The translations under genes were made by a program, and so were the position numbers. From the NCBI GenBank assembly GCA_951406725.2, contig OX597830.1, positions 9,238,001-9,302,000 on the forward strand: a stretch of 64,000 bases of DNA, written 5' to 3'. The notes under the pieces are model-generated. The model saw only the letters and a program-made list of their open reading frames with translations, did not search any database and was not told the DNA's origin. Origin of the DNA: Octopus vulgaris. Taxonomy: Eukaryota. Shown in pieces: positions 67-60,332 of the stretch (position 1 is the first letter of the stretch; each line of letters starts with the position of its first letter).

Positions 67-625
67 TACACACACATATGTGTGTGTGCCTGCGTGTGTG
101 ATTGTATTCGTGTATTTGTATGTGTGTGTATATGTATGTATATACGTGTATGTGTGTATATGTTTTTGGGGAGAATATAAGTATGTATGCATGTATATAT
201 ATATATATATATATACACATATATATACATATATACATGTGTATATATATTTATATATATACATTCATTCATAGAAACCTCTGTGTGTGCGTGCGTAGGT
301 GTACTTAACCGTGTTGTAAAACAACCCTTAATGCTTGTTTGTAGAATTACTTCATTGAATCTATGATTCAATAATGAGTTCTCTGATTTCATTTCGTTGA
401 GCTAATGATGATGGTATGAGTCGAAACATAACCAGGAACGATTGATTTCTCTCGTGCGTTTCTTTTTCGACGAATATGCATACTTACGTACATTTTATGT
501 ATGTATATATGTATACATGTATACATGTATACATATGTATACATGAATATACATAAACACATATGTATAAGTATGTATATGTGTGTGTGTATTTATATTT
601 ATAACTTAACCTTATGTACTTTCTA

Positions 626-752
626 AAATCTCTGACAAAGCCTAGAGAAACACCCAAGTACCTCAATTTCATCTACTAATTACTTCAGTCTACTGGAGGG
701 ATAAAGGTAGAATGAGGTATTTTTGCCTCTTGGCCGAAACAGCTGTAAGATA
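626..752 (+). ncRNA. Degenerate type I hammerhead with ~97 nt stem II insertion
   Basis: AUCU-CUGACAA-AGCCUAGAG...AGUACCUCA/UGAGGUAUU...CUCUUGGCC-GAAAC-AGCU-GUA^AGAU. G8 is mutated to A. Same architecture as 50343-50456. Confidence 0.6.
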
Positions 753-997
753 TTTTCCCAATTTCTATTCCTTTATGTTATATATTTTGATAATTACTAG
801 TATCTTTATATATTATATATGTAAAGCATTATATGTTATACATGTATGTATATTCTTGTAATTGTCATTTTAGTACATATATAAATATATTGACATAATA
901 TAATGTCTAAAAGCTGATGAATACCGCCTATTGATCCCATTCACTTTCTTATTGCTATATATATATATTCATACCTGTATATGTATATATATGTATG

Positions 998-2798: not shown

Positions 2799-3914
2799 CA
2801 TACTCACATACATTCATACATTCATACACACATACATACATACAAGACGTGAGAAGTAATGATGCACACACACATTCATATACATGCCTGCATGCATACA
2901 TACATACATACATACATACATACATACATACATACATACATACATACATACATACACTCTTATCATTGTAAACAAAGAAAATAGCTTCTTCAGAGCATCA
3001 TTACACGTGTTTCAACAGCGTGGTTTATTCCTGTACGAGTCTGTTGCGTAACTTATTAGGTGACGTTATGTAAGTTTGTAATGTCGCAAAACGGTTCATG
3101 TTACCATGTAAATTATGCAATGGACTCGCATTTGGAATAAACCACGCTATTGAGAGATGAGCACTGATGCTTTGAATTCTCCATTCGGTTTCGTCTTTGT
3201 TTACTAAAGTACTGGTTTCAGATTTAGGCATAAGGCCAATATTTTAGTGGGGAAGAGTAAGTTGATTACGTTGACCCCAGTGCTCGACTGGCATTTATTT
3301 TATCGACCCTGAAAGGATGAAAGGCAAAGACGACCTCGGCAGAATTTGAACTCAGAACGTAAAGACGGACGAAATGTCGCAAAACATTTTGTTAGGTGTG
3401 TAAACGAGTTTACCTGCACGCTGCCTTTTTGTTTACTAAAATAATACATCATGTTAAATGTACCAGTTATTCCTTTGATATATTCACGGATCTTCGGGTT
3501 ACCCGCAACCAATAAACAGCCGTTTTACTATATAGACTGGTGATTTTAACAGACAGCTAGACAATACAAAGACGGACAGGAATAAACAAGGACGAGTCAT
3601 TCGCAGCCGTCTCTCATCAGTCAAGTTTCCAGATCTTCCTTACAGTTTCGGGCGGTTACATATGAGACTGTTCAAATCTGACTGACCCCCAAAATCTAAG
3701 CTACGAGCATCAAATTCTTTGGGAGAAAACAAACGAATGTGTACGACAACAAAGACAAAAAAAAAAAATCGGAAAAAATGTTACAGTTTTACAAATACAA
3801 ACAAGAAAATAACAACAGGTGTCTTTCTGAGACAAAGATTAAACAGAGTAAGAAAAAATATTGCAATGACCCCAAAATATTATGTCCTCAAATACTTTAC
3901 GCACTCTGTGAGTG

Positions 3915-4029: not shown

Positions 4030-4072
4030 TTTCAGTACCGGTTTCAGTCATTCAAACTTTTTCAACTGTAAA
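4030..4072 (-). ncRNA. Minimal type I hammerhead ribozyme, U3:A8 core variant, in a PLE-like terminus (~3983-4140)
   Basis: Minus strand reads UUUACAG-UUGAAAA-AGU(UUGAAUG)ACU-GAAAC-CG-GUA^CUGAAA. Confidence 0.7.
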
Positions 4073-13923: not shown

Positions 13924-14571
<648 letters not shown>

Positions 14572-18322: not shown

Positions 18323-18748
18323 CACACATACACACATACACACACACATACACATATATACACTTGTTACGAGTTCAAATATACTTGAGGCATGCTGAAC
18401 CCATAAGAAATCTATTCACTGTATTTTGTCTTGGAGAAAATATTTCGTTGTAGACAGATATGTGTAAACACACCAAATGAATTGAAAGCTCTGACCAGAC
18501 TAATGGACGCATGTGCTTCGGAGTTATAGAAAAACTACACATTTTTTACTTTCTCTTTTCTTTGCCGTTCTCTCTCCCATTTTTTCCTCTCAAAAGCGCG
18601 TAGGCTCGAAACGTCAAACACTTTTCCATTTTCCCCAAGCGTCAAACTAATACACCCGCTTGTTGTTCCATCACCTGTCTTCGTCTTTTCTGTAAGTTTG
18701 AACTACACACATACACACGCACACACATACACACACATATATACATAG

Positions 18749-24983: not shown

Positions 24984-25172
24984 AAAATAGTAAAGTGTGA
25001 AAAAACGACAGAAGGCTTAAATGTTAAAAAAAATATATATTTGTGTCAAAATGTCTGGAGAATATTGGAAAAAATTTTTTCCTTTCCTTAAAATGACATA
25101 ATTTTAAAATTTTTAAAGAAATTACCGGTTTCGCGTGTAGCTTAAATCATTAAATCATTAAATCATTAAATC

Positions 25173-25679
25173 ATTAAAAGCTACAAACAGCCTAAATCAC
25201 TTAAAAAGATTCTCACAAAGGCAAAATTGTCTTCTAAAATTACGGATGCAAAAGTAAAAAAATGTGGTAGATCGAACTGTGCAACATGTCCTAACCTATT
25301 GGAAGGATCAGAATTCTTCTTTAAAGAGGGACAGAAATTCAAGATCAAATCTAACTTTACTTGTGCCTCTGAAAACATAATTTATGTTATTAAATGCTCG
25401 GGCTGCCACCAAGACTACGTGGGTTCCACGGGACTATCACTCAGGCGTAGATGCACACTGCATCGACAACAGATTGCATTCCCAGAATATAGAATGATAC
25501 CTTTTAGTGAGCACATTGAGAAATGCGCAAAACAACTACTGCCACAATTTTTAATCTTCCCATTTTACCAATGTGCTTTCGGATCATCAACACAAATGAG
25601 ACTGAACAAGGAAACATTCTTCATTGAAAAGTACAAACCCAGACTCAACCATCCGAACATACTGACACAGAGAAATTAA
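25173..25679 (+). pseudogene. C-terminal GIY-YIG endonuclease domain of a PLE ORF (RT part lost)
   Basis: Open frame IKSYKQPKSLKKILTKAK...KKCGRSNCATC...FTCASENIIYVIKCSGCHQDYVGSTGLSLRRRCTLH...RLNKETFFIEKYKPRLN*. Shows the Cys-rich linker, IIY/YVG motifs and conserved R, H, E, N typical of Neptune-clade PLEs. Confidence 0.9.
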
Positions 25680-25814
25680 CAAGGAAAAGGGAAAAAAATT
25701 TTTAAGCGATTATCTCCCTTACACCGGAAGAAATCACTCACTACCTCCCCTTATTTAGAAATCTCCTGAAAATAAACACAACGATAACTCCATGCAATAT
25801 AAACATAACGTCAC

Positions 25815-25854
25815 AAGAAATTTGAAAAGCTACACGCGAAACCGGTAATTTCTT
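25815..25854 (+). ncRNA. Minimal type I hammerhead ribozyme, U3:A8 core variant
   Basis: AAGAAAU-UUGAAAA-GC(UACAC)GC-GAAAC-CG-GUA^AUUUCUU: 7 bp stem I, palindromic ACCGGU stem III, located in the PLE 3' UTR. Confidence 0.75.
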
Positions 25855-26007
25855 TAAAAATTTAAAAATTATGTCATTTTAAGGAAAGGAAAAAAATTTT
25901 TCCAATATTCTCCAGACATTTTGACACAAATATATATATTTTTTAACATTTAAGCCTTCTGTCGTTTTTTCACCCTTTACTATTTTCTTATATACCAAAC
26001 AAACTTT

Positions 26008-27989: not shown

Positions 27990-28425
27990 AGTAAGGGCTA
28001 AAGAAAATTATTTCTCTGCAGCATGCCACACAAACAGGAGAAGCCAGCCATAGCTGTAAGACAATTTCTGCGACCACATCATCCCTAACATCTGGCCACC
28101 TAACTCCCCAGACTGCAACACCCTTGATTATCATGTGTGGAGCGCAATGTGAGACCAACAAAACTCTTTGTAAAACCAAAGATGATATGAAGGCGAGGAT
28201 TATGGCAGCATTCACCAACGTAAACAAGGATACCGTCCAGAAGAGTTGCAGGACATTCCGAAGTTGTCTGGAGGCCGTCGTTGAAGCCAATGGCGATTTT
28301 ATCAAATAAATTTAGTATTTCAAAACATTTTAATGTAATTTTGGTAAATATGTCTGTTAAAATGAAATGTCAGTGTTATTTTTCTTTTTGCATAATTTAG
28401 ACGACAATTTATTCACCGCACCTTG
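27990..28425 (+). mobile_element. 3' part of a maT/DD37D-like Tc1/mariner element
   Basis: NIWPPNSPDCNTLDYHVW...CRTFRSCLEAVVEANGDFIK*; ends CACCGCACCTTG|TA. Confidence 0.8.
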
Positions 28426-28649: not shown

Positions 28650-28687
28650 TCTTTTACGTTTCGAGCCTATGCTCTTCAACAGAAAGA
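28650..28687 (-). ncRNA. Minimal hammerhead-like fold in TA-flanked island 28553-28730
   Basis: UCUUU-CUGUUGAA-GAGC(AUAG)GCUC-GAAAC-GUA^AAAGA. A related degenerate copy lies at ~18585-18620 (+). Confidence 0.5.
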
Positions 28688-28936: not shown

Positions 28937-28982
28937 AAAACTGTCCGACGAACGGGAACGTGAAACTCCGAGTCACAGTTTT
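28937..28982 (+). ncRNA. Type I hammerhead, CCGACGA (C4) core variant
   Basis: AAAACUGU-CCGACGA-ACG(GGAA)CGU-GAAAC-UCCGA-GUC^ACAGUUUU; 8 bp perfect stem I. Confidence 0.75.
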
Positions 28983-29039
28983 CCTGATGGTTTTCAAGTT
29001 TTATTAACAAAGTATATATATATATATACAAATAATTAA

Positions 29040-29430: not shown

Positions 29431-29962
29431 TAATGAATATAAGACTTAATTTATTAAACAAAGTTCAATAAATTTAATCAAATAAATGAAACAAAGCAGA
29501 TTAGATGTTGAAATGGATTATCCTTTCATTTCATAATCCTAGACAATTGTTTCTGACAAAAAGGACCAAGCTTTCTATAAAGAAAGCATCATAAAGGTCG
29601 AATTTGTACTCTTCAATAGATGAGATTTAAAGGAAAATATCCAAAAAGACATTTAAAATATACATTGAATTTTTTTTATTAGTTATCATTATTATATAGG
29701 TATTTCTATATTCATTCTTCCACTCACAATAATTTGAATCAAGGCTATTGGTTATTTACCTTCAAATCCCACATGCTGAAGAGCACATATTCGACCTTTA
29801 TGATGTACTCTTTATAGAGATCTTGGTCCTTTTTGTCTGAAACAGTTGTCTTTGATTATGAATTAAAAGGATAATCCATTTCAACATCTAATCTGCTTCG
29901 TTTAATTTATTTGATGAAATTTATTGAACTTCGTTTAATAAACACAGTCTTATATTAATTAT
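29431..29962. mobile_element. Old fold-back element with diverged ~220 bp arms
   Basis: ~29435-29660 is an imperfect reverse complement of ~29740-29960. The arms carry YUGAAGA...GAAACA(A/G)UUGUC hammerhead-like motifs. Confidence 0.7.
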
Positions 29963-30139: not shown

Positions 30140-30805
30140 AAAAATACAAAATGGGACAAGAACGCAAAATACACAAAGAGACGACACAAAAAACGGACGG
30201 GTCATTCGAAGCCTCTAATCTTCAGTCAAGAACCGGATCATCCTCGCAATTTCGGCTGATTAATCTTGAGATTGCTCCAATCTGGCCAGCCCCAACGAAA
30301 AACTAAGCTACGAGCATTAGATTTCATGGAAAAAGGATCGAATGTATACGAACAAGGACAGAAAAACGGACGACGCCACACCAATATAAATACAAAAAAC
30401 AAAAATAAAATTAAAACAAGAATGGTAATAACAGGACAAAAACAGCGGGTGTCTTACGACTTTAGACAATTTAACTTAGCTGGCGTAGCCGCAAAGGCAT
30501 TTATTTAAAAATACGCGTCGTCCGTTTTTCTGTCCTTGTTCGTATACATTCGATCCTTTTTCCATGAAATCTAATGCTCGCAGCTTAGTTTTTCCTTGGG
30601 GCTGGCCGGATCGGAGCGATATCAGGATTAATCAGCCGAAATTTGCTAGGATGATCCGGTTCCTGACTGAAGATTAGAGGCTTCGAATGACCCGTCCGTT
30701 TTTTGTGTCGTCGCTTTGTGTATTTTGCGTTCTTGTCCCATTTTGTATTTTTATATATAATTTTTATACATATATTATTGCGGCGTAACGTACACCTTGT
30801 TCCCT

Positions 30806-30960: not shown

Positions 30961-31033
30961 TGCATACAACCGTTTCGTACATAGATATAAATTCATTTTA
31001 GAATTTGCACATATCAAAGTACTCATCAGTGCA
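30961..31033 (-). ncRNA. Type I hammerhead ribozyme, canonical core, extended stem II
   Basis: UGCA-CUGAUGA-GUAC..GAUAU..AAAUUC/GAAUUU..AUAUC..GUAC-GAAAC-GGUU-GUA^UGCA. Confidence 0.85.
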
Positions 31034-31484: not shown

Positions 31485-31615
31485 AAAATAGCACCAAATA
31501 TATAGTGCGTGTGTTTTTATTGGCTAAACTGGCAAAATGACCATTCCGAAATATAACAATATCTGTTTCAACACACGACTTCACATAAAAAATCTTGCAC
31601 AACAAATATTTAAAC

Positions 31616-33999: not shown

Positions 34000-34380
34000 C
34001 GTAAACATAAATCCGAAAAAAGAAGCACGCTCTAAGTTATAGAGCAATACATATTAAAATTAGAAAAGGTCGTTTTAAGGGATTACTTTAGGTTTCACGT
34101 CCACAAAGGGCTCGGCTCTATGGCGTATCTTCAGATCCCCAAACCTGTTCACTAAAGGCCTCTCTAGAATATTGAGGAGGAAATGAGCTTATTACTCAAT
34201 GTCAAGAAAGGGGATTGTCTCCCCTTGGCTATCGATCGCCGACGATGTCAACAAAGGAGGTTGTATCGATCACCAAAGGCCTTGCTATCAAATGGGTGCC
34301 AATAGGCTAGCAGGAATTTCCTAATATGCAAGCACGTTCCGTTCTGGAGTTCAGGATGTTCTCTGGGTTGAAGGTGTTCT
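34000..34380 (-). mobile_element. 3' end of a PLE (Nematis-like C-terminus plus hammerhead)
   Basis: Minus strand encodes NILNSRTE (frameshift) CLHIRKFLL, resembling the LLNxRxE..C.H..KFLL C-terminus of Nematis-type GIY-YIG ORFs. A hammerhead follows; microsatellites flank the island. Confidence 0.65.
34079..34139 (-). ncRNA. Type I hammerhead ribozyme
   Basis: GGGAU-CUGAAGA-(U)ACGCCAUAGAG...CUUUGUGGACGU-GAAAC-CUAAA-GUA^AUCCC. Confidence 0.75.
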
Positions 34381-43020: not shown

Positions 43021-43044
43021 AGTAATGATAATGATAATTATTAT

Positions 43045-43545
43045 TTTTTCCTATATCACAGGTTTTGTTGGAGCTCCTGGAATCGTGCGGGCTTACTACC
43101 TGCAGCCTACAGTACCATGCTATCCATTCTTTCCAGCTTTCTAATACTTTCCTGATTATTCTGCCCGTGCAAAGGAGGCAAGCCTTTTGTAACAGTTCTA
43201 CCAAGCACTCTATTCCAGTTTCCATTATATTCTTCTTGATGCCTTCTGATACTGTTCCCAAGAACCCAACAATAATTGGCACTGCCTTCACCTTCTTCAT
43301 TTTCCATAGCTTGGCTATTTCCTTCTTCAGAGGGTTCTATCTATCTATCTTTTTGCCTTCCTTCTTGACTATTCGTGGGTCAAGGAGGGATACAACGTCA
43401 ACTACATAGCATATATGGTGCACCTTGTCCATCACCACTAGGTCCGGTCTGTTATACTCTAGCACCTTGTCTGTTTGGATTGGGAAATCCCAGAGGATTT
43501 TGCTAGTCTCCGAATCTGCCACTCTCTGCGGTTTGTGCCCATACC
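43045..43545 (-). mobile_element. 3' end of an R4/Dong-like non-LTR element (restriction-like endonuclease)
   Basis: KILWDFPIQTD...NRPDLVV...VVDV...KKIDR and VPIIVGFLG...LLQKACLL...IIRKVL; ends in (AAT)n-like sequence. Confidence 0.85.
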
Positions 43546-46803: not shown

Positions 46804-47007
46804 TACACCCCCCACATCCACCCCTCATATATATATATTATATATATATATAAAATGAGATAGGGGTTGTAAATTCAACCCTCCATTAGACATTTTAATG
46901 TCTAATCTCATTGCTATTGTGTAGTGTTTTAATAAAGTATGTGATTGGGTATTATCTGATAGTTGATGATTGATTTAGATATATTTCTCCATTTTCTCAT
47001 TTTGTAC

Positions 47008-47055
<48 letters not shown>

Positions 47056-47152
47056 GCAATAATCACGGAATGCAAAACAAAGTGGAAAAAATAGTACTCG
47101 AATACTTGAGGTAGAGTAATATGCTTTATTAAAGCGCAGCAAAAATATCACA

Positions 47153-47197
47153 AAAACTGTTGCTCAGAGTTTCACGTTCCCGCCGTCGGACAGTTTT
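47153..47197 (-). ncRNA. Degenerate second copy of the CCGACGA hammerhead family (island ~47053-47200)
   Basis: AAAACUGU-CCGACG-GCG(GGAA)CGU-GAAAC-UCUGA-GCA-ACAGUUUU; A9 missing and cleavage triplet mutated. Confidence 0.6.
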
Positions 47198-47394: not shown

Positions 47395-47483
47395 TAACGA
47401 CACGTGTTTCATGGCTATATTTAAGAAATGATTATAGTAGTAGAGAAATCACTTCGATATAAATATAGTCACTCATCAGGTTA
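47395..47483 (-). ncRNA. Type I hammerhead ribozyme, canonical core, long stem II
   Basis: UAAC-CUGAUGA-GUGACUAUAUUUA...UAAAUAUAGCCAU-GAAAC-ACGU-GUC^GUUA, with inner helix GAAGUGAUU/AAUCAUUUC. Confidence 0.85.
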
Positions 47484-50096: not shown

Positions 50097-50152
<56 letters not shown>

Positions 50153-50155
<3 letters not shown>

Positions 50156-50500
50156 AAATGAGAAAATGGAGAAATATATCTAAATCAATCATCAACCATC
50201 AGATAATACCGAATCATATACTTTATTAAAACACTACACAATAGCAATGATATTATACATTAATACAGTACAATAATTACAATAAATATGGTGAGATAAA
50301 ACTAAATAAATATAACAAGACATAAAAATACATTTACATTGTAGCTGACAGCTGTTTCGGCTATGAAGACAGGTATGTCTCATTTAACCTATTAGCCATA
50401 TAATGCAGTTATAAATGAGACATTAACAAGAATATCTTACGGCCTCTTCAGAGATTCTAATGCAAGTATTAGTACAAACCCTAAATAATTTACATATAAA
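50153..50500 (-). mobile_element. PLE-like 3' terminus; its last ~100 bp recur at 46909-47007 (+)
   Basis: 50153-50250 is a close reverse complement of 46909-47007. Carries the 50343-50456 hammerhead and abuts (TA)n. Confidence 0.7.
50343..50456 (-). ncRNA. Type I hammerhead with ~85 nt stem II insertion
   Basis: AUCU-CUGAAGA-GGCCGUAAGA...AUGUCUCAUUUA/UAAAUGAGACAU...UCUUCAUAGCC-GAAAC-AGCU-GUC^AGCU; stem I has one mismatch. Confidence 0.7.
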
Positions 50501-51034
50501 TATAAATATGAGTGCATACACACTCATATTCTTACATATATATATATATACACAATAATACAATATAAACAATATAAATCAATATACATCAACAAACACA
50601 ATAATGTTCCATATTGAACTCCACAGCTCCTCAACCAACATCAAGAAACCACAACAGACACACTCACACTCAACGCAGGCATATATATTAAACAGTTCAA
50701 TATATTAAAATGTGTCACTTCACAAAAAGCCAATAAAGTTAATACCACCACCTTAGTACCATCCAAGGCAAGTGGATATCTGCATATATATGCAATCATT
50801 TAAATTCCTCTGTTTGCATGGTATTAATTTTCACAGATGCATTCGATTGGCCTATACTTTTAAATTTGAATTACAATAGATATATTACGGTTAGTTAGCT
50901 AGGAAACATACACACGCGCACGCACATCCACAAAACGTGCGCACATACAGACATAGTCATATGTTTACACACACACACATACCCACACACATACACACAT
51001 ACACACCGACATACCCACATACACAACCAAATCA

Positions 51035-52621: not shown

Positions 52622-53527
52622 TTATCTAGTTTAAGCTCACAAGCTGTGGCCATGCTGGGGCACCGCTATTTGGTGTTGCTACATGATTCTACTTCACGAA
52701 TGCTTTTTAGCAATTGCCATTTGGTGCATGAGAGAGTTTGATGCAGCTGCCCTCATCTGCCGTGAAGTTGGTTCATCTGAGACACCTGACAAGAAGAGAT
52801 CCAATTTTAATTTAAAGACATCTGCATCCACCCCATGCAAGTCTCTTAGGTTCTTCGGAGGATATTTGGAGTCCTTGGCACTATGCAGTGGCGCCCAGTT
52901 CTGGCATTTGTGTAATTCTCGATGCCAAAGTTTGGGACAAGTCCTTCTAGGATCTTTCAGATGTATATTACGGCATATCTTTCTCGCCTACGCTCTAAGG
53001 AATAGAGTCTCAATCTCTTGAGTCTTTCCCAATAGCTTATATGCTGCACAGAGGCTATCTTCTTCGTGTAGCTTCGTTGGATCGCCTCAAGTTCCGTGAT
53101 TAACTTCACACTGGATGGTGACCATAGCTGAGAGCAATAGTTAAAGTGGCTTAGGACAAGTGTCCTCCAGAGGACCATCATGGTTTCCTGGTCTCTTGTT
53201 CTAAAGGTTCTAAGAATCCATCCGGTCAGCCGCCTACATTTCATTGCGAATTTAGCAACATGCACGTGAAAAGTTGCATAATCATTCATGTAAATACCCA
53301 GGTCTCGCACTGACTGTGCCTCTGGGATTGCAATCCCTCCAGGTCCGGTGTATTTATTGGGTATTGCATTTAGTTTTGCATGCTGATAGCATAAAGCTTG
53401 AAACTTTTTCAGCATTGAACTGCATGCTATTCTTTTCAGCCCACTTATATATTTTGTCCAGCTCACATTGCAGGTGCTTAGTGTCTTCAGGGTTCTGTAT
53501 TGCCTGTGAAACTTTTGTATCATCTGT
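52622..53527 (-). mobile_element. 5'-truncated CR1-group LINE (RT C-terminus plus 3' UTR)
   Basis: ORF 52957-53523 VRDLGIY...WILRTF...YCSQLWSP...LEAIQR...YWERLKRLRLYSLERRRER; (TA)n on both sides. Confidence 0.9.
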
Positions 53528-53571
53528 ATATATATATATATAAATATATATATTTATATATATATATATAC

Positions 53572-58064: not shown

Positions 58065-59294
58065 CGAGGGGTACTCAAAAGTAACCGGAAACGTTCTTTG
58101 TGAGACAAGCTCATTGTAGTTCAGGCTTTCGCCGCTTGATGCGACCTTCAGATATCAGTTTGCTGACCAAAGTCGTCAACTGATGTCGTAGTTCCACGTG
58201 ATGCGTCTTTCTTTCGCAGTGTTTCTCCCCTATTCATCGACTTTGTGATGCATCGATGAAATTCTGTTTTCTGCTGGGGAAAATGGCTGCCAAAATAACC
58301 GTCATGCTTCAAACAGCTTACAAGGACACTGCTATGAGCAAATCACAAATTTACGTGTGGTCGCTTGTCGCTTCAAGACCAACCTCGATCAGGATCTCCC
58401 GAACGAATGGAAAGATCATGAAAGTTCATGAACTCATCTTGGGGGACAATCATCTAACAAGTGACGAACATGTTGATATGACTGGTGTGTCTTGGACCTC
58501 CTACCAACGAAATTTGAGCTATGTCTTTATTGCCCACAAGGGGCTAAACGTAGAGGGAACAAACAAGGACAGACAAAGGGATTAAGTCGATTACATCTAC
58601 CCCAGTGCATAACTGGTACTTCGGAATTTGAACTCAGAACGTAACGGCAGACGAAATACCTATTTCTTTACTACCCACAAGGGGCTAAAGACAGAAAGGA
58701 TAAACAAGGACAGACAAACGGATTAAGTCGATTATATCGACTCCAGTGCATAACTGGTACTTATTTAATCGACCCCGAAAGGATCAAAGGCAAAGTTGAC
58801 CTCGGTGGAATTTGAACTCGGAACGTAACGGCAGACGAAATACCGCTGAGCATTTCGCCCGGCGTGCTAACGTTTCTGCCAGCTCACCGCCTTCAACGAA
58901 TTTTGAACGAGGAATTGCGAATGAAAAGAGTTGTAGGGAAATTTGTGCCTCGCTTGCTCACAGAAGATAATCAGCAGTCACGGCTGAATGCGTGTCGTGA
59001 ACTGAAAGACCAGTTGGAGATTGACCCGGATATTTTTTACGAAGGTCATCACTGGTGACGAAAGCTGGTGCTATGGAATTTGCAGAAGTGGAAGAGACAA
59101 AGAAAAAAAAAAAAATGATGGAGGCGTTAAAAGGCATCACTTCGCGAGAGTTCCAGCACTGTCTCGAATTGGGGAAAACGCGTCGGAACCGATGCAAGTG
59201 GAGAATACTTTGAAGGTGATAAAAGTGTAAACATGTAAAACTAAGTGAACAGAATAATATTGCAAAATTCCGGTTTCTTTTGGGTACCTCCTCG
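58065..59294 (+). mobile_element. Internally deleted mariner element with nested SINE
   Basis: TA|CGAGGGGTACTCAAAA...TTTTGGGTACCTCCTCG|TA; fragments KFCFLLGK..MLQTAY, KFVPRLLT, VITGDESWCY. Confidence 0.9.
58518..58893 (-). mobile_element. SINE family A dimer inside mariner
   Basis: TSD CAACGAA(A/T)TTTGA at 58505-58517 and 58894-58906. Confidence 0.9.
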
Positions 59295-59416: not shown

Positions 59417-59696
59417 AAATTAATTAAGGGTAGAAATTGATATTTATCAATTAAGACCAGTGGTCTAGCATATTAAAAAAGAATCCGAAGATTAAAATAT
59501 TTATATATACCAATTAAGGACTGAACACGAAAAGTGGACAGTCAACATGCTAGATATAGACGTCAAATCGCCATTCTCCACAAAAGATTATGTTCTCAGA
59601 TCAAAGATCTGAGAACATAATCTTTTGTGGAGAATGGCGATTTGACGTCTATATCTAGCATGTTGACTGTCCACTTTTCGTGTTCAGTCCTTAATT

Positions 59697-59698
<2 letters not shown>
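59415..59698 (-). mobile_element. Second copy of the same fold-back family, 93 bp arms
   Basis: Near-identical to 14137-14324. Arms 59510-59602 and 59606-59698 with a 3 nt loop (AAA). Confidence 0.9.
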
Positions 59699-60050
<352 letters not shown>

Positions 60051-60136: not shown

Positions 60137-60239
60137 TCACGGCAATTGTTTCGACACATCTAGCATCGATTCCTCTTGGGTGGGACACTCAACAACTGGT
60201 TCAGGAGCATCCGGTGGTGCAGATGTATCTCGTCGGTTA
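60137..60239 (-). ncRNA. Degenerate hammerhead with long stem II
   Basis: CCGACGA-GAUACAUCU...AGAUGUGUC-GAAAC-AAUU-GCC; cleavage triplet and stem I are eroded. Confidence 0.5.
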
Positions 60240-60332
60240 GTAAATAAATAAAAACAACTCTTTAAAGTGACTGTTCCACAACGTAACTTTCCGTTTTGTA
60301 GGGAGAAAAGCAGCCAGACGGAGGAAATATCT

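Follow-up and report, generated by a model that had tools for sequence, protein, structure and literature searches.

Hammerhead-type motifs with a greatly expanded stem II occur seven times in the window, that is, in the whole 64,000-nucleotide stretch of Octopus vulgaris DNA analysed here, and their stem II measures 46–97 nt against the usual 10–25 nt. The reading that we prefer, and hold with moderate confidence, is that these are dimer-type hammerheads from the pseudo-LTR (pLTR) tails of Penelope-like elements (PLEs), in which the long stem II is kept as a paired peripheral rod and has no dedicated cargo. On sequence grounds, the long multi-helix stem II is likely an unusual form of a known PLE-type hammerhead, and the repeats that carry it are likely broken tails of PLEs or their non-autonomous derivatives.

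Hammerhead Motifs in the Window

The window is AT-rich (27–43% GC), abounds in microsatellites and short interspersed repeats, and contains no long ORF. Fourteen type I motifs or remnants were counted in these 64 kb, and half of them have a stem II above 45 nt: copies A (626), B (50343), C (47395), D (30961), E (60137), F− and F+, which belong to four lineages (A/B, C, D/F and E). The first-pass annotation had described 626–752 and 50343–50456 as hammerheads with an expanded stem II, and this is borne out, both being type I motifs with a stem II of 97 and 86 nt, respectively.

Copy B is located at 50341–50457 on the minus strand and has an intact core, a weak stem I and a palindromic stem III; its core CUGAAGA is at 50445–50451 (−), its right half GAAAC-AGCU-GUC is at 50347–50358 (−), and the cut is predicted after 50347. 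The 86-nt stem II (50359–50444, −) is a predicted rod consisting of a basal helix IIa, a middle helix IIb and a variable distal hairpin. Its homologue, copy A, is located at 625–755 (+), with the core CUGACAA at 632–638 (+), where the G8 position reads A, the 97-nt stem II at 639–735 and the right half GAAAC-AGCU-GUA at 736–747 (+). Because the G8 and G10.1 positions are both A, the hammerhead of copy A is likely dead.

Stem II domains of about 45–80 nt had also been proposed at three other places, and two of them are intact: copy C (47395–47483, −), with an intact core, a 62-nt stem II, a palindromic stem III and a (TA)n run 172 nt further on, and copy D (30961–31033, −), with an intact core, a 46-nt stem II, a near-palindromic stem III and (TA)n 101 nt further on. 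The third, copy E (60137–60240, −), is a degenerate hammerhead-like motif whose 77-nt stem II has a strong basal helix and an unstructured interior; its core, U16.1 and stem I are damaged, and the descriptors do not report it. Absent from the first-pass annotation was copy F− (29538–29620, −), which has a 56-nt stem II, a palindromic stem III and U at C3, and whose downstream flank is homologous to that of copy D; its inverted partner, copy F+ (29772–29854, +), has an intact core and a 56-nt stem II with a weak fold (z −1.1). That is to say, the core is intact in B, C, D and F+, is changed at G8 in A and at C3 in F−, and carries several changes in E.

As for the stems, the base of stem II has 4–13 bp, and the canonical short loop II is absent from the long-stem copies. 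Stem I has 4–6 bp in copies A, C, D and F−, while that of copy B has 2 bp followed by a mismatch, likewise at the family level; a 2-bp helix I has been reported for the Penelope of Drosophila virilis. Stem III consists of 2 bp and a palindromic loop; in A, B, C and F− its 8 nt form an exact palindrome, with duplex energies of −11.1 (A and B), −10.3 (C) and −6.4 (F−) kcal/mol. As a monomer hairpin, stem III is unstable (+2.4 kcal/mol), whereas the duplex is possible; in copy D the duplex reaches merely −1.8 kcal/mol.

The seven shorter motifs or remnants begin at 25822, 4036, 28945, 47141, 28655, 18594 and 34084. They include a pair with a Hydra-clade-like stem III (28937–28994, +, and 47141–47197, −), a minimal motif with an A6-to-U core (28655–28682, −) and its decayed paralogue (18594–18689), a hammerhead with a 31-nt stem II (34084–34134, −), and a minimal U3-A8 motif (4036–4065, −), the second of this kind beside that at 25822.

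Chance Controls and Folding of Stem II

The core halves that flank stem II are linked and are not chance matches. A type I descriptor was applied to the window and to 40 block-wise dinucleotide shuffles of it; at a score of at least 9, devised post hoc when the matches had already been seen, 8 matches were found against a shuffle mean of 0.1. For a stem II of at least 40 nt, there were 5 descriptor matches against 0.025 in the shuffles, one of the five (44025) being rejected afterwards, as its stem II has 3 bp, its stem III is non-palindromic and it is likely a chance match in a SINE-like repeat. A relaxed scan, run without a shuffle control, added two minimal U3-A8 motifs and the inverted pair 29542 (−)/29776 (+), whose domains are 56 nt long; its rows at 31555, 51684, 15901, 36870, 24790, 51792 and 39060 were rejected for two core mismatches or a non-palindromic arrangement.

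Compared with shuffles, stem II folds with z −2.25 (50343), −3.68 (626), −4.55 (47395), −3.63 (30961) and −2.37 (60137), values to be read against the 7 of 150 random window stretches that also reach −2.25 or lower. When the closing helix, the outer 10 nt, is trimmed, A, B, C, D and F− keep z −2.7 to −3.8, whereas E (z +0.4) and F+ (z −1.1) fold no better than shuffles. Rfam gives no match in the window at the gathering threshold, and by E-value there is no hammerhead model among the best 150 of 708 matches, which are microsatellite-driven miRNA models; the minimal PLE motifs of the window are likewise missed.

Two smaller structural candidates were set aside. The majority letter at 50457 disrupts a 5-bp pseudoknot between the bulge of copy B and its 5′ flank, and an alternative cleavage strand inside the insert fits copy E alone, which by rough estimate is within chance. 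Within the insert of copy E there are also 6 nt complementary to its own stem III strand and then a U, possibly the remnant of a permuted form, although chance may well give this in a single copy.

The Repeat Family of Copy B

Copy B is part of a high-copy, 5′-truncated repeat (50153–50760, −), whose 3′ end abuts a (TA)n run at about 50100–50152 and whose upstream edge is at 50760 or beyond; its last 115 nt have a second copy at 46895–47009. Parts of 50200–50640 are present in 20 of the 24 listed runs from four organisms, and half of it in none. Contigs of four of the 24 runs, one per organism, were aligned to 50153–50760 at an identity of at least 80%, giving 1026, 354, 571 and 149 aligned contigs per run with all identity bands represented, and in none of the four runs is a bin of stem II left uncovered. 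The long stem II is thus a trait of the high-copy repeat family of copy B and not of a single copy.

The summed depth in run X1 drops from about 550,000 where the 3′ end is anchored in (TA)n to 37,000–100,000 over stem II and 1,400 at 50741–50760, and homology of the repeat reaches at least 300 nt upstream with the depth falling. This gradient is a 5′ truncation profile; depth is not the same as copy number, and the tail may belong to other families as well.

Among 40 of the 44 variant rows, four are in stem II and none is in the core halves at 50445–50451 and 50347–50358, the variants being read singly and not linked on one molecule. At 50362 and 50409, the family letter is the majority letter in all four runs (66–90% and 75–91% of depth, respectively), and each restores a pair that is broken in the window copy, with ensemble energy changes of −5.65 and −3.17 kcal/mol; with both letters together, the MFE becomes −29.9 instead of −20.2 kcal/mol. 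The remaining two variants are neutral (+0.11 and −0.06 kcal/mol). Single substitutions reach −2 kcal/mol in 23 of 258 cases, and the four listed variants jointly have p of about 0.002 against four random substitutions. According to the folding model, the pair-restoring family letters point to a better-paired ancestor, which by itself does not amount to a demonstration of selection. Loose contig ends reveal subfamilies with differing distal hairpins, one of them with a more perfect basal helix. On the 3′ side of the distal hairpin, A and B have a similar short unpaired stretch, which turns up again in five loose ends that represent subfamilies of B and cover all four runs.

Conservation of Structure and Sequence

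The inserts at 626 and 50343 had been described as different, and in this respect the first-pass annotation has to be corrected: compared in sequence, they prove homologous though diverged, and the middle helix shows two compensatory changes between them. Homology between A and B extends over about 400 nt (z 8.8, with none of 100 shuffles as good) at 60% identity over 425 columns; taken piecewise it is weak, with 22 of 1000 shuffles as good for the insert, 46 of 1000 for the downstream part and 117 of 1000 for the upstream part. The 3′ strand of helix IIb has the same A–B alignment under all four gap settings and the 5′ strand is in register under one of the four. A covariance model built from A alone gives the same IIb register and ranks copy B second at 30.5 bits, with palindromes and microsatellites at no more than 26 bits; a sequence-only model gives 19.8 bits, a value not directly comparable with 30.5.

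Between A and B, all eight pairs of helix IIb are kept across five letter changes, which comprise two adjacent compensatory changes and one from G-U to A-U. In neutral simulations with at least five changes, all eight pairs were kept in 16 of 3577, a figure that concerns two sequences and a helix picked after the fact. The distal helix is aligned inconsistently between A and B. RNAalifold on a MAFFT alignment, in which the inserts are misaligned, does not recover the rod, and the whole-insert energy control does not discriminate, as 163–169 of 400 drifted copies fold as well.

It had further been proposed that stem II is conserved in structure rather than in sequence. Copies D and F− are the sole case that matches this description: their downstream flanks are alike (0 of 1000 shuffles), their inserts are unalignable (442 of 1000 shuffles as good), and both inserts (30961 and 29542) are predicted rods despite their unlike sequences. 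No loop motif is common to the four lineages A/B, C, D/F and E. From these models, conservation of the pairing in stem II receives moderate support.

The AUG in the 3′ strand of IIb opens 49 codons in both A (712–858, +) and B (about 50236–50383, −); frames of this kind appear in 33 of 2000 and 42 of 2000 shuffles, and the two are in differing frames and encode unrelated peptides. In addition, the cleavage triplet resembles a splice donor, with a putative acceptor-like site about 130–140 nt downstream.

Probable Relationship to Penelope-Like Elements

According to PMC8557442, PLEs are marked by hammerheads near their 3′ ends, by insertion into (TA)n and by truncated copies in inverted orientation; PMC4209133 describes a palindromic helix III and cleavage as dimers. 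The window copies show the traits reported for PLE pLTR hammerheads in PMC4209133, PMC8557442 and PMC6765202. In the window, the distance from hammerhead to (TA)n is 101–213 nt in A, B, C, D and F+; the two F copies are inverted relative to each other, the other five (A, B, C, D and E) are single, and every long-stem copy lacks a same-strand neighbour for dimerising.

A tblastn search with six PLE proteins finds no RT or endonuclease remnant beside the long-stem copies. Its sole match is 25131–25676, the next best having an E-value of 0.16. This match belongs to a PLE C-terminal GIY-YIG remnant (25170–25855, +) followed by a minimal U3-A8 hammerhead with a 9-nt stem II at 25822–25847; the remnant proper (25170–25676) is 99% identical to a database protein, has six longer relatives, four of them with an RT domain, and is accompanied by an inverted truncated copy (25170–25990, +). 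PLE protein relatives number zero in viral contigs. Since a PLE endonuclease remnant thus carries a minimal hammerhead, PLEs are present in the window, and this remnant is not linked to the long-stem families. The absence of a linked RT/GIY-YIG ORF is to be expected if the long-stem copies are short truncated tails. As no coding remnant adjoins them, their membership in the PLEs, like any clade, is a matter of inference.

Whether the long-stem motifs could be the missing Naiad hammerheads was judged by eye on five cephalopod Naiad 3′ ends as printed in PMC8557442, and no type I motif with a long stem like those of A–D was seen there.

Comparison with Known Hammerheads

The metazoan PLE pLTR hammerheads described in PMC4209133 (min-HHR and small-palindromic-helix-III variants; Cervera and de la Pena 2014) resemble the window copies in type I topology, core letters, short stem I, a dimer-suited palindromic helix III, U-rich flanks and dispersed single motifs near element ends. 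They differ in that helix II there does not exceed 7–8 bp and the descriptor limits its loop to 10 nt, as compared with 46–97 nt and up to three predicted helices in the window; moreover, copies A and B have no extra nucleotide after A9, and the window copies have no linked coding region. The Hydra-clade and Chlamys/PLE-X hammerheads (Craig et al. 2021, PMC8557442) share the 3′-end location and the (TA)n preference, whereas the Hydra motifs given there have a stem II of roughly 10–25 nt and a stem III of 3–4 bp with a small non-palindromic loop.

That PLE hammerheads are usually minimal, as the first-pass annotation assumed, holds only in part. The impression is to some degree a search bias, because published PLE descriptors limit stem II to about 25 nt: the 2014 descriptor of Cervera and de la Pena (PMC4209133) is given with a stem II of 3–7 bp and a loop of 3–10 nt, and Craig et al. 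(PMC8557442) report searching for core halves 7–17 nt apart and note half-cores 35–50 nt apart, for which no structure is given. A stem II of 53 nt is in fact listed in PMC8557442 for the plant PLE-X1_sMoe (9 bp and a 35-nt loop) and flagged there as deviating; it is a simple stem-loop, unlike the predicted multi-helix stems of the window. Four 11-mers, three of them from long-stem motifs of the window, have no match in the accessible supplement of PMC8557442, and the 'long helix II' of viral hammerheads in PMC13725137 is described as 6–8 bp.

Animal non-LTR retrozymes (PMC7229834; bioRxiv 10.64898/2026.07.22.740005) are likewise described as type I hammerheads within non-coding low-GC repeats of a few hundred bases; according to these accounts they are tandem with canonical short helices, whereas the window copies are single or inverted and 5′-truncated. 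Poseidon PAc of Anolis (Frangione et al. 2024, PMC11167929) is also a PLE hammerhead with a stem II AUG upstream of the cut; as presented there, its stem II is short, the cut is 26 nt after the AUG and it was tested in vitro, whereas the window motifs are known from sequence. In the mostly non-subscription literature covered, no description was found of a multi-helix stem II of 46–97 nt in animal retroelement hammerheads. Arkhipova et al. 2017 reportedly used relaxed descriptors permitting longer loops.

Counts of PLE hammerheads rest on descriptors that are blind to a stem II above about 25 nt. With 7 of 14 motifs above 45 nt in 64 kb, many ribozymes in such genomes have therefore likely gone uncounted, and a hammerhead may exist in some PLEs recorded as having none. 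PLE hammerheads are weak in vitro and protein-assisted in Anolis, and the long and minimal natural variants together are suited to a direct test of protein recruitment by stem II.

Proposed Mechanism and Rival Explanations

In the preferred reading, the motifs would cut only as dimers: where a transcript contains two copies, in tandem or through read-through, these would be joined by an intermolecular stem III of 8 bp and cut after GUC or GUA, probably aided by the protein of the element, as in the Anolis PLE, whose hammerhead is reported to require its protein for cleavage (PMC11167929). Target-primed reverse transcription into (TA)n would then turn the RNA into 5′-truncated single tails, most of which would since have decayed. 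Loop II would be free to grow, such growth presumably being tolerated because PLE hammerheads are reported without clear contact between loop I and loop II. Selection would retain growth that is self-paired, for a self-paired rod may keep off the core and stiffen the stack of stems II and III.

If stem II were instead a cargo module, the rod would be a dedicated dock for the PLE protein or a tertiary-contact domain, switching on cleavage or recruiting the RT; we regard this as possible but unlikely. That the Anolis PLE hammerhead is reported to cut only with its protein (PMC11167929), and that long stems appear in four lineages within 64 kb, would both suit such a dock, but A/B, C, D/F and E have no common loop sequence, the rods range from 46 to 97 nt, and the minimal hammerheads of the window do without a rod. 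The unpaired stretch 3′ of the distal hairpin, alike in A and B and recurrent in B subfamilies, speaks for a cargo, and the variation of the distal hairpin among B subfamilies speaks against it. Likewise, the AUG of the IIb 3′ strand is kept in A and B, 36–37 nt before the cut, and the Anolis ORF starts in stem II, but across the core the two copies read this AUG in different frames, and the resulting peptides of 49 residues are unrelated. A bolder form, likewise unlikely, would place the motifs in a large class of animal PLE hammerheads that has been overlooked: a three-helix rod would have replaced the short loop II and would dock the element protein, coupling cleavage to reverse transcription; several lineages would have evolved the rod, and all descriptor-based surveys would have missed it.

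The copies could also be monomers of non-LTR retrozymes, that is, tandem self-cleaving repeats giving rise to circular RNAs in which the rod is part of the paired circle, an explanation that we consider improbable. It differs from the preferred reading mainly by organisation, because retrozymes have been argued to derive from PLE pLTRs. Type I hammerheads with a 2-bp stem III and tetraloop in low-GC repeats are indeed described for retrozymes (PMC7229834), as are dispersed monomers in animals (PMC7229834; bioRxiv 10.64898/2026.07.22.740005), but against this explanation stand the absence of a tandem copy from the window, the missing canonical 6-bp stem I and 4-bp stem II, the homology that continues upstream for 300 nt or more as the depth declines, and the lack of any listed go-back joint for the 608-nt stretch, although contigs can lose such joints. 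Finally, the rods could be neutral fold-back relics, produced by template switching or hairpin insertion and amplified with their masters, the structure being unselected. Inverted truncated copies are frequent in PLE insertions, perfect palindromes in the window reach 25–26 bits under the structure model, and a paired ancestor suffices to account for the pair-restoring family letters; even so, double compensatory changes in IIb between families of about 60% identity, asymmetric internal loops, imperfect palindromes and the prediction of rods for both D and F− despite unlike sequences make this explanation very improbable.

Collection Scans and Other Observations

In JGI metagenomes, the right half of the hammerhead was found at 9 loci, none of which has an upstream core, and the two-part hammerhead pattern has no match in viral contigs. 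Its 18 matches in GTDB were treated as chance: 17 lack a downstream stem III/I, none has a type III arrangement, and Rfam finds one tRNA nearby and nothing else.

Decayed coding pieces of the window, which by eye we take to be LINE-like and Tc1/mariner-like, are found at 52697–53553 (−), 58202–58582 (+), 27995–28306 (+) and 43022–43336 (−); Pfam gives only a weak Mos1 HTH match among them, for 58202. Two long palindromic elements, 14138–14529 and 59417–59711, are 97–98% identical and are possibly young MITE-like or fold-back insertions.

A permuted hammerhead-like repeat occurs at 30205–30320 (−), 30570–30686 (+) and 3596–3712 (−), the first two copies being an inverted pair between (TA)n runs. 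Its blocks are ordered cleavage site, GAAA, CUGANGA (S-G-C), the same order as the non-circular type SGC of PMC10085705; it departs from that type, as described there, in that the 5′ strand of stem II is placed upstream, a further helix is present, and after the core the motif is closed by a helix of 8 bp. Across the three sequences, 92% of 90 cells pair under a structure derived from one of the copies, and both partners differ in 6 of 30 pairs, a result that 2 of 500 shuffles match; slid controls are 18–50% paired. With a permuted descriptor, one copy scored 11 (0.1 per shuffled window) and another 8 (0.75), and the third was missed. This family would break the assumption in PMC10085705 that 'Block C is uninterrupted', and it may be more novel than the long-stem-II hammerheads. 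In File S5 of PMC8557442, inspection by eye suggests the same permuted order for the 3′ end of Naiad_Ovul, which is labelled HHR_half_core there, and for that of Naiad_Obim.
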